A stretch of 64,000 nucleotides of DNA from an uncultured Candidatus Rokubacteria bacterium (GTDB lineage Bacteria; Methylomirabilota; Methylomirabilia; Rokubacteriales; CSP1-6). Numbering within the stretch: the stretch's first letter is position 1; each line of letters opens with the position of its first letter. Position numbers and translations under genes: made by a program. The stretch is taken from assembly GCA_963771355.1 (NCBI GenBank), contig CAVYTA010000008.1, forward strand, positions 1 to 64,000, in the 5' to 3' direction. Below are positions 62,081-63,340 of this stretch, piece by piece. Below the pieces are notes generated by a model that worked only from the letters and a program-made list of their open reading frames with translations, did no database searches and was not told where the DNA came from.

Positions 62081-62169
62081 GCCGGCGGCTGAAAAAGGCC
62101 CATCTGCGTCGTTGGCGCCCTCGGCCGCACGCTGGGCAAGCCCACACTCAACGTAGAGAGACTACGCCT
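62081..62169. repeat. left part of a long palindromic REP-like element, interrupted by the IS
   Basis: GCCGGCGGCT, AAAAAGG, GGCGCCC, GCCGCACGC each have a reverse complement in 63288-63340. Confidence 0.85.
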
Positions 62170-62180
62170 TGTATGTTGGG

Positions 62181-62340
62181 TGGGGGCGCCAGTCAGCGAC
62201 GCCCCGGTAAGGCGGACGGAAGCCCGCACACGCCTGGGTCCTCGAAGACCGTACGCGAGCTCGGTGCTCCGTCCGCTGTTCCATCGTTAACCCGAACAGT
62301 CACTTGGGCCGCGGGAGCCCGCATGCAAGGACGGGACATG
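62181..62340 (+). ncRNA. predicted bridge RNA of the IS110 element
   Basis: 5' hairpin 62183-62205; target loop in stem 62212-62220/62268-62276; donor loop in stem 62291-62294/62332-62335; guides match target and donor junctions; exact ends not determined. Confidence 0.82.
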
Positions 62341-63270
62341 GAACAGATCATCGTGGGCATCGATATTGCCAAGAAGCGGTTGGACGTCCATGTGCGGCCG
62401 CAGGCAGAGACCTTTGCGGTGGCCGCGGACGAGACGGGAGTGCAGGACCTGGTAACGCGGCTGCAGGGGCTGGCCCCCCGCCTGGTGGTGTTGGAAGCGA
62501 CCGGCGGGTACGAAGTGCCGGTCGCGGCGGCGCTGGCCGGTGCGGGCCTGCCGGTGGCCGTGGTCAATCCTCGACAGGTGCGAGACTTTGCGCGAGCGAC
62601 GGGACGCCTGGCGAAGACCGATGTCCTCGATGCGCAGATGCTGGCGCTTTTCGGCGAGGCGGTGCGCCCCCCCGTCCGGGCTCTGCCCGACGAGCAGGCG
62701 CAGAAGCTGGCGGAACTCGTGGTGCGGCGGCGCCAGTTGGTCGAGATGCTGGCGGCGGAGACGAATCGGCAGCGGCAGGCGCGGGAGCCACGGGTCCGGC
62801 AGCGAATCGCCGCGCACCGAGAGTGGCTGCGGGCGGCCTTGCAGGAACTCGAGCGCGATTTGCGGGCGACGATTCGCGGGAGCGGGATCTGGCGGGAGCG
62901 GGAGGAGGTGCTGAAGTCCGTCCCCGGGGTCGGGGATGTGACAGCGCAGACGCTCATCGCCGAGCTTCCCGAACTGGGCCAGCTGGATCGCCGCCGGATC
63001 GCGGCACTGGTGGGTATTGCGCCCCTGAACCGAGACAGTGGCACGTTCCGAGGACGCCGCATGATCGGCGGCGGGCGCGCGGCGGTTCGCACCGTCCTCT
63101 ACATGGCCGCGATCACCGCGATCCGCTGCAACGCGGTGATCGCCGCGCAATATCAACGTCTCGTCGCCGCCGGCCGGCCCGGCAAGGTGGCGCTGGTCGC
63201 CGCAATGCGGAAGCTATTGGTCATCCTCAACGCCATGGTCCGGGATGGCCGTCGTTGGGAACTGGCTTGA
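62338..63270 (+). CDS. IS110-family DEDD recombinase/transposase, 310 aa
   Basis: [53 protein letters not shown]. Confidence 0.95.
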
Positions 63271-63287
63271 CTCGCGACACAGTCGCT

Positions 63288-63340
63288 CGCGTGCGGCTCT
63301 CGGGCGCCGCGTCGCATCTGGACCTTTTTGAGCCGCCGGC
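63288..63340. repeat. right part of the palindromic REP-like element
   Basis: GCGTGCGGC, GGGCGCC, CCTTTTT, AGCCGCCGGC mirror 62081-62132. Confidence 0.85.

Follow-up and report, generated by a model that had tools for sequence, protein, structure and literature searches.

The window, the whole stretch of 64,000 nucleotides that was analysed (uncultured Candidatus Rokubacteria bacterium, contig CAVYTA010000008.1), contains a host hairpin repeat flanked by a convergent alpha/beta hydrolase gene and by the gene of a luciferase-like monooxygenase, and this repeat is split by an element of about 1.1 kb (1118 bp plus one CT core). To judge from its sequence, the element (62168-63287) is an insertion sequence of the IS110 group with an unbroken recombinase gene; it has no cargo genes. 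The neighbouring genes at 58051-61251 look catabolic, with a luciferase-like monooxygenase-like ORF, a cupin (PF07883), and an ORF of 435 aa which we take to resemble homogentisate dioxygenase. The element and its landing site comprise the following features, where the promoter is a predicted one.

62168..63287, plus strand: IS110-group element, core to core (identical second copy with the same ends; 1118-nt skip in DNA contigs)
62168..62169, plus strand: left CT core (comparison with empty repeat copies)
63286..63287, plus strand: right CT core (comparison with empty repeat copies)
62161..62167, plus strand: left target, ACTACGC, positions 1-7, host DNA (sequence and empty copies)
63288..63292, plus strand: right target, CGCGT, positions 10-14, host DNA (sequence and empty copies)
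63279..63285, plus strand: left donor, ACAGTCG, positions 1-7 (sequence)
62170..62174, plus strand: right donor, TGTAT, positions 10-14 (sequence and parsed relatives)
62338..63270, plus strand: IS110 recombinase, 310 aa (matches to PF01548, PF02371, NF033542 and PDB entries)
63267..63272, plus strand: -35 box TTGACT, sharing bases with the stop codon; its 17-nt spacing to the -10 box exists only in the circle
62172..62177, plus strand: -10 box TATGTT of the predicted circle-junction promoter
62081..62167, no strand: left half of the host hairpin repeat (repeat profile, comparison with contig C6)
63288..63339, no strand: right half of the host hairpin repeat (repeat profile, comparison with contig C6)
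62152..62166, no strand: central 5-bp hairpin of the repeat, its 3' arm being target positions 2-6 (folding)

A tblastn search of the genome gave exactly two matches, the window copy and a copy on contig C6, which are identical from core to core and differ in their outer flanks and repeat variants. This soil-bacterium genome holds two copies of the element at the same spot of the host repeat: both split the same imperfect palindrome of about 120 bp at the same CT. Empty repeat copies read ...TACGC-CT-CGCG..., so that one CT core is present in the empty site and a CT at both ends of the element, as is typical of the IS110 group. Contigs from three of the four DNA runs jump exactly 1118 nt, from 62167 to 63286; having short sides, they represent empty repeat copies and not necessarily the window locus. 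Because the identical C6 copy, the empty repeat copies and these contigs agree, the boundaries are confirmed independently. A preliminary description of this DNA had given the empty target as ACTACGC-CT-CGCGTGC and the circle-junction donor as ACAGTCG-CT-TGTATGT, with boundaries that the C6 copy and the empty repeats uphold, and had named different boundaries in other copies as an argument against itself; the C6 copy has the same ones. The left end (62170-62337, 168 nt) is non-coding and carries the guides, and the right end (63271-63285) has 15 nt. A long left and a short right end form the layout of the IS110 (IS621) group (PMC11208160). The layout of the IS1111 group, with the RNA in a long right end downstream of the gene, was rejected, the right end being 15 nt long and the guides lying upstream.

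The recombinase reading frame had been described as apparently intact, and it indeed runs unbroken over 62338-63270 with the catalytic residues present. It matches PF01548 (6.1e-25), PF02371 (4.1e-19) and NF033542 (223 bits, with a cut-off of 140), and its PDB matches are IS621 and ISCro4 chains only (E about 1e-42). Residues D9/E53/D95/D98 align with D11/E60/D102/D105 of IS621 (PMC11208158; D11 and E60 taken from the PDB-match alignment), A54-T55, N77-P78 and S234 with A61, N84 and S241, and the hydrophobic wedge Y255/M256/I259 with Y264/M265/M268 (PMC11208158). The DEDD residues, and the C-terminal Tnp domain (PF02371) with catalytic serine S234 and the wedge, place the protein in the IS110 group. 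Its length of 310 aa was given correctly, but the adjective "compact" fits less well, as 315-330 aa are usual in the branch (PMC11187229). An alternative in-frame ATG at 62323 would give 315 aa and is used by 13 of 15 among the cluster members listed; it was judged less likely, being absent or out of frame in most relatives. The protein cluster has 27 members, full-length ones among them, and the nearest ISfinder-named protein seen, that of ISMno7 from Methylobacterium nodulans, is 57.9% identical.

When the genome was searched with a profile of the repeat, 15 loci were found: 11 intact and empty, one split by an IS3-like element, one half copy and the two holding the IS110 element. CTAG stands at the left edge in 8 of the 14 copies that have a left end. 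No empty copy of the exact 14-bp target site is left in the genome, and the 11 guide-read bases match six unoccupied sites, three in repeats and three outside. In Rfam neither the element nor five empty repeats reached the gathering score of any family; the best matches, a plant miRNA hairpin at E 0.003 and sX15 at E 0.023, were taken as chance.

The left repeat half in the window bears 15 extra bases (62133-62147) that are absent from the C6 copy. They read TG, the last ten bases of the right end of the IS3-like element and three further bases, and lie at the spot where that element splits another repeat copy; they are likely the scar of an IS3-family insertion. The IS3-like element itself (L196, C6:1227613-1228872) is 1260 bp long and frameshifted, with TG...CA ends, a 4-bp duplication and matches to PF01527, PF13276 and PF00665. 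Loose ends resembling IS3-like ends at this spot occur in runs X5 and X6, and together with L196 they make the host repeat a landing site for two IS families. On contig C2 (123381-123427) a lone right repeat half starts at the IS110 insertion point, with no element leftward.

The left end of the element can be read as a bridge RNA with the following predicted parts.

62183..62205, plus strand: predicted 5' stem-loop of the bridge RNA (folds; variable among relatives, pairs not counted)
62212..62276, plus strand: target-binding loop, stem 62212-62225 with 62263-62276, inner hairpin 62237-62250 (covariation)
62227..62235, plus strand: left target guide slot, 6/9 in register, positions 4-9 exact (sequence, relatives, shuffles)
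62253..62259, plus strand: right target guide, 7 nt, fully complementary to CT-CGCGT (covariation in 96 relatives)
62260..62261, plus strand: target-loop handshake guide, in which C62260 can pair with G7 of the donor but not with C7 of the target (sequence; numbering of PMC11208158)
62277..62345, plus strand: donor-binding loop, with a predicted closing helix of 62277-62284 with 62338-62345 over the start codon (helices 3 and 4, covariation)
62296..62304, plus strand: left donor guide, 8/9, mismatch at position 7 (sequence, relatives)
62323..62329, plus strand: right donor guide, an uninterrupted run of 7 nt without bulge, pairing with one G-T wobble (position 12)
62327..62331, plus strand: AAGGA, core-reading guide and donor-loop handshake; G62330 can pair with target C7

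The four guide segments proposed in the preliminary description, CACACGCCT (62227-62235), GTACGCGAG (62251-62259), ACAGTCACT (62296-62304) and GCATGCAAG (62321-62329), are exact, and the hairpins said to separate them, GGTC/GACC in loop 1 and GGGC/GCCC in loop 2, were both found. In dinucleotide shuffles of the left end all four guide matches appeared in 2 of 5000, order and position ignored. The folding check that had been suggested, run on 62161-62345, gave an unremarkable plain free-energy fold (z -1.37); as a scaffold model such a fold was rejected, as by it the left end is not special and the guides pair with each other. Among 43 related left ends with short leaders, 97.5% of cells are paired in the scaffold, against 34-51% in slid controls, and two-sided changes occur at 13 of 25 pairs; for target-loop helices 1 and 2 the values are 97.3% and 98.8%, with two-sided changes at 11 of 17 pairs. 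Two internal loops on a conserved stem scaffold are a feature of the IS110 group. Scaffold covariation and the guide-flank covariation given below agree with the target-loop/donor-loop organization described earlier for this locus, and the left end, as read from its letters, is a two-loop architecture of the IS621 type whose guides match the element's own ends and its landing site.

In the loops of IS621 a flipped A and a syn G stand five apart (A43/G48, A67/G72, A116/G121 and A150/G155; PMC11208158). Four A-N4-G motifs are present here (62221/62226, 62246/62251, 62289/62294 and 62316/62321), each of which is retained by 41 or more of the 43 relatives. Since these motifs are conserved as in IS621, G62251 and G62321 belong to the scaffold and the right guides are 7 nt long. 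Right guides of 9 nt were rejected, as target position 15 has no covariation and their first G is conserved scaffold. The right target guide proposed at 62251-62259 with one G-U pair thus stands as a perfect guide at 62253-62259, but 62251-62252 are scaffold and the G-U at position 15 is coincidental. The right donor guide proposed at 62321-62329 with two wobbles was likewise shortened: 62323-62329 with the position-12 wobble holds, but 62321-62322 are scaffold and the other wobble is coincidental. For the left donor guide the earlier count of 8/9 was obtained again. The donor guides are complementary to the element's own junction (8/9, and 7/7 with one wobble), another IS110-group feature; their covariation was left unscored, the donor being nearly invariant in the set of relatives. 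The right donor segment is 9 nt long in 3 of 43 left ends (the window element, L001 and L042) and 11 nt in 39, and therefore the 2-nt bulge of IS621 is absent from the window element.

A separate problem is the left target guide, described earlier as matching 8/9 with one bulge. Its match in register is 6/9, and the bulge is one possible reading to which the data lend little weight. Taken as a family rule, the exact bulge proposed (guide positions 2-3 on target positions 1-2) was rejected, the register scoring 69 and the bulge 40 (n=118). Where guide position 2 mismatches target position 2, it matches target position 1 in 16 of 32 cases (null 8.0); with the repeat clade set aside the figure is 11 of 26 (null 6.4, p 0.02). 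It would hence be plausible that one base is skipped at the distal end of this guide.

The natural relatives allow the guides to be compared with the DNA that flanks them. With 190 related loci and the window, 191 were available; 116 were parsed by scaffold and donor motifs with the target unused, and 75 were dropped (31 with no target loop of the assumed shape, 11 with no donor guide, 12 with no left end, 16 with no right end and 5 with a short flank). The parsed loci gave 96 distinct guide pairs. When guides were set against their own flanks, a mean of 8.9 of 12 non-core positions matched, as compared with 4.0 after permutation (sd 0.16, maximum 4.6); the window element scores 9 of 12. Right-guide positions 10-14 match in 80-96% of the relatives (null 26-33%), and position 15 does not covary (10% vs 13% in the null). 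Left-guide positions 3-7 match in register in 61-91% (null 29-76%), position 2 is weak and position 1 is at chance level. These counts are partly built in, because the parse fixed a 9-nt left slot, the G after the hairpin and donor G7, and favoured C at the target handshake; moreover, the relatives are not independent of one another. Covariation is limited to positions paired in the IS621 structure, and it extends across pairs with unrelated targets. Compensatory drift can be seen within the repeat clade, where L042 has target C14 with guide G and the window element T with A, and the right guide of L113 follows its own CGCCT target. Guides thus track their own flanks across 96 distinct pairs, which is the outcome looked for by the covariation check proposed earlier, and the claim that the element has its own target specificity is borne out by it. 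This natural covariation supports the idea that recombination may be reprogrammed by changes in guides; that the element deserves the labels "programmable" and "active" is something we infer.

Nine of the 116 parsed loci, with six distinct guide sets, lie in this host repeat, and all are at least 75% identical in protein. The next relative, at 67% identity, lands elsewhere, and none at or below 67% was found in the host repeat. The closest named elements, L001 and L042 (86% and 82% identity), come from a Ca. Rokubacteria assembly, and L081 with L112-L114 form one branch with support 100 in a quick tree, built from 94 of 96 rows with the frameshifted L001 and L042 left out, the clade being read from the drawing. 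Guides of the repeat-clade elements follow the repeat variants, and the 5-bp hairpin is kept in all six of their targets that were folded. In one genome (G182), L219 has repeat halves from different variants, so that the palindrome arms no longer match, and the gene of L218 breaks off internally, a repeat half forming the end of that element, which suggests recombination between sister IS copies or mis-assembly.

Several other relatives depart from the common plan. L006 carries in its left flank, immediately ahead of the core, a second version of its left end that reaches as far as its own left target guide; it looks as though one copy had used the guide region of another as its left target. 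L021 and L151 have CG or GT at the left junction, CT at the right one and a left guide ending in CG; possibly their core is shortened to one base or shifted. In the planctomycete relatives L074, L075 and L077 a long palindrome is inserted ahead of the target loop, the left end beginning a little way upstream, and the stop codon is not directly followed by a donor motif; these elements possibly have longer right ends.

The bases next to the core are arranged in a way that, in IS621, favours strand exchange (PMC11208158). C occupies the column of C62260 in at least 90% of the 43 relatives, and the donor-loop handshake base is G in 41 of 43; in the window element this base is G62330, which can pair with target C7 and not with the element's own donor DNA. 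In both loops the handshake pairs with non-cognate DNA at position 7 and in neither at position 6, in line with the IS110 group. Target position 7 is C in 86 of 96 cases, so natural targets are effectively CCT-centred. The promoter TTGACT-17-TATGTT forms only across the circle junction and is a motif-level match to an IS110-group feature. A -35 match of at least 4/6 at 17-nt spacing was found in 86 of 96 junctions vs 2 of 96 integrated left flanks, where the -10 letters partly overlap the motif used for finding the left end.

One of the more unusual features of this left end is that AAGGA at 62327..62331 lies 6 nt before the ATG, and it is likely that it also acts as the Shine-Dalgarno site. 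Among 80 elements with a locatable start (47 with a short and 33 with a long leader), AAGGA spans the donor guide and handshake in 42 of 47 short-leader elements vs 5 of 33 long-leader ones; most of the latter have a separate purine-rich site ahead of the start. Nucleotides 62277-62284 are complementary to 62338-62345, start codon included. The mean longest start-codon helix in the 43 relatives is 6.4 bp, which compares with 5.9 (at most 6.3) when partners are permuted and with 4.3 when the arms are shuffled. Short-leader elements fall mostly in one branch of the quick tree, and the overlap is therefore one lineage's habit, not many independent cases. A far-reaching interpretation, which we put forward as speculative and on balance unlikely, would be that the bridge RNA doubles as a translation switch of the recombinase. 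The donor-loop core-reading and handshake bases would constitute the Shine-Dalgarno site, the closing helix would bury the start codon, and a transcript folded as bridge RNA or bound by recombinase could not be translated, making expression self-limiting. The same interpretation would have this small clade run on a trimmed RNA that lacks the donor bulge and whose left target slot, one base short, covers 9 bp with one DNA base looped out; the clade would also have become specialised on a hairpin repeat of Rokubacteria in which the central stem and the target overlap. If true, the ribosome-site overlap would account for the way in which such elements keep their own recombinase in check, and it would restrict the places at which these RNAs can be cut and reprogrammed in cis. 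A literature search at the level of titles and listings retrieved no paper linking a buried ribosome site to the donor guide.

Of 24 sequencing runs listed, eight were examined, four of DNA and four of RNA, all as contigs. Three DNA runs from three other studies hold the element with the window right flank, and long pieces in runs X6 and X7 show 0-1 differences from it. No circle junction was present in the contigs of the eight runs, and contigs drop rare forms. RNA-library contigs of runs X15 and X16, from one study, cover the left end and the ORF, although contigs cannot show ends, strand or level. In X16 the target loop of a relative appears as a 130-nt contig with a depth of 44, vs 9 for the ORF; contig depth can neither rank parts nor prove transcription. 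In run X11 a contig of depth 6.8 passes from the element's left flank in the window through the element and on into the right half, with its flank, of the C5 repeat copy (L193), which is empty in the genome assembly and matches the guides; this joint reflects a third site of insertion, or else a rearrangement between sites or a chimeric assembly.

We regard it as highly probable that an IS621-like cycle operates here, in which a bridge RNA would direct the recombinase to a single position within the host hairpin repeat of about 120 bp. Anatomy and covariation are observed, and every catalytic step we infer from IS621 (PMC11208158, PMC13626964). Read-through transcription would supply a little RNA and protein. 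The element would leave as a circle, and its ends, joined as ACAGTCG-CT-TGTAT, would create the -35/17/-10 promoter. Target and donor loops would form in the left-end transcript, with one recombinase dimer attached to each via the A-N4-G motifs; left guides would pair with the bottom strands and the 7-nt right guides with the top strands. S234 would cleave 3' of CT, and C62260 and G62330, pairing only with non-cognate DNA, would promote strand exchange and favour insertion over excision. Resolution of the Holliday junction would leave one CT at each end. Against this model speak the mismatches of the left target guide (3/9 in register) and of the left donor guide (1/9), as well as the three empty repeat and three non-repeat sites which match the 11 guide-read bases and are unoccupied.

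A single repeat serves all close relatives, and this would be compatible with recognition by protein as well as by RNA. That the protein alone picks the repeat, the guide-like matches being captured flank leftovers or chance, is nevertheless scarcely credible in view of the position-wise covariation over 96 guide pairs with unrelated targets and of the 2 in 5000 shuffles that reproduced all four matches. It is very improbable, too, that we are dealing with a defunct remnant or with a duplicate created by the assembly, the guide matches having ceased to act. The left target guide has drifted (C at position 3, where L042, L112 and L113 have the T that matches in register), sisters L001 and L042 are frameshifted, L218 is truncated and the contigs of eight runs contain no circle. 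On the other hand, the ORF and catalytic residues are intact, the two copies differ in flanks and repeat variants, full-length members occur in the 27-member protein cluster and independent DNA runs show 0-1 differences.

Two other proposals would modify the IS621-like cycle. The central hairpin of the repeat, with its 3' arm at target positions 2-6, might be a second specificity gate, adding to that cycle and replacing nothing in it; we find this conceivable but rather doubtful. The same 5-bp hairpin is the minimum-energy fold in six of six repeat-clade targets, with a C-G/G-C swap at position 2, and a hairpin gate was reported for ISPpu10 (10.64898/2026.03.19.712850). Such a hairpin occurs in 33 of 96 family targets (20.6 expected), yet 63 relatives do without it. 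Both occupied sites are in the repeat and the three non-repeat 11-base sites are empty; however, with five repeat and three non-repeat matching sites, two repeat insertions are not significant (about 0.36, in one genome), selection against gene disruption gives the same picture, and three repeat copies with hairpin and full match are empty. A copy-out route, to which we assign a probability not far short of even, would produce a single-stranded circle by donor-loop-only (half-match) recognition instead of a double-strand excision that restores the empty site, with insertion still guided by RNA. It was reported for IS621 (10.64898/2026.08.31.748434) and would suit the identical copies at two sites and the persistence of the window insertion in runs of three other studies. 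For IS621, however, low-rate excision and probing of post-excision junctions were also described (PMC13626964), and the present data fit both routes.

Compared with what is known, the class is fully described and the element adds small details only; it likely moves as IS621 does. It provides a clean example, taken from nature, of the bridge-RNA mechanism in Rokubacteria, which leaves the known class unchanged, and its sister elements supply ready-made natural guide variants. A literature search for Rokubacteria and IS110 yielded no paper. IS621 of E. coli (PMC11208160, PMC11208158, PDB 8WT6) shares with it the DEDD residues and catalytic serine, long left and short right end, CT core, two loops with A-N4-G motifs, guide polarity, donor position-12 G-T wobble, position-7 handshake rule, junction promoter and a palindromic repeat as target. 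It differs in the target itself, in a left target slot of 10 nt between scaffold G and linker (9 here), in the native pairing of the right target guide (4, as opposed to 7/7 here), in the 2-nt bulge of the right donor guide and in recombinase length (326 aa vs 310 aa). Unlike in IS621, the donor loop here is predicted to close over the start codon.

The preliminary description regarded the class as described and left the newness of this member to a search. IS110 orthologues in the covariation set of Durrant 2024 have the identical 14-bp donor ACAGTCG-CT-TGTAT, with at least 64 occurrences in supplement file 4 and 148 in file 5, and so the branch was already present in the founding data set. 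One supplement row is nearly the left end of locus L002, and ISMno7, at 57.9% recombinase identity, is in the tree of that study. The class assignment therefore holds, and as to newness, donor-sharing relatives are on record but a search of the supplement text, which covered part of the files, showed neither the element's own guides nor its target.

REP-like targets are a known habit of IS621, ISPpu9 and ISPpu10 (PMC11208160, PMC8450116, 10.64898/2026.03.19.712850). ISPpu10 of Pseudomonas putida resembles the window element in landing on a repeat with a stem-loop of about 5 bp overlapping the left target, and in tolerating distal left-guide mismatches with a strict right guide; host, repeat and sequence differ, and at the window element the role of the hairpin is a candidate only (10.64898/2026.03.19.712850). 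In the REP-targeting ISPpu9, also of P. putida (PMC8450116), a 5' leader was proposed to bury the ribosome-binding site of the recombinase and an antisense RNA to open it, whereas in the window element the ribosome site would coincide with the donor guide and handshake bases. ISCro4 / IS622 (10.1101/2025.05.14.653916; PDB 9T56) belongs to the same family (E 7.8e-43) and, unlike the window element, was tested and engineered. One of the 72 orthologues screened in that study was quantifiably active in human cells (10.1101/2025.05.14.653916), and the utility of the window element is therefore not to be presumed. Its native 7-nt right target guide and bulge-free donor guide nevertheless resemble engineered improvements of IS621 (PMC13626964), and this likeness makes the element a reasonable candidate for orthologue screens.
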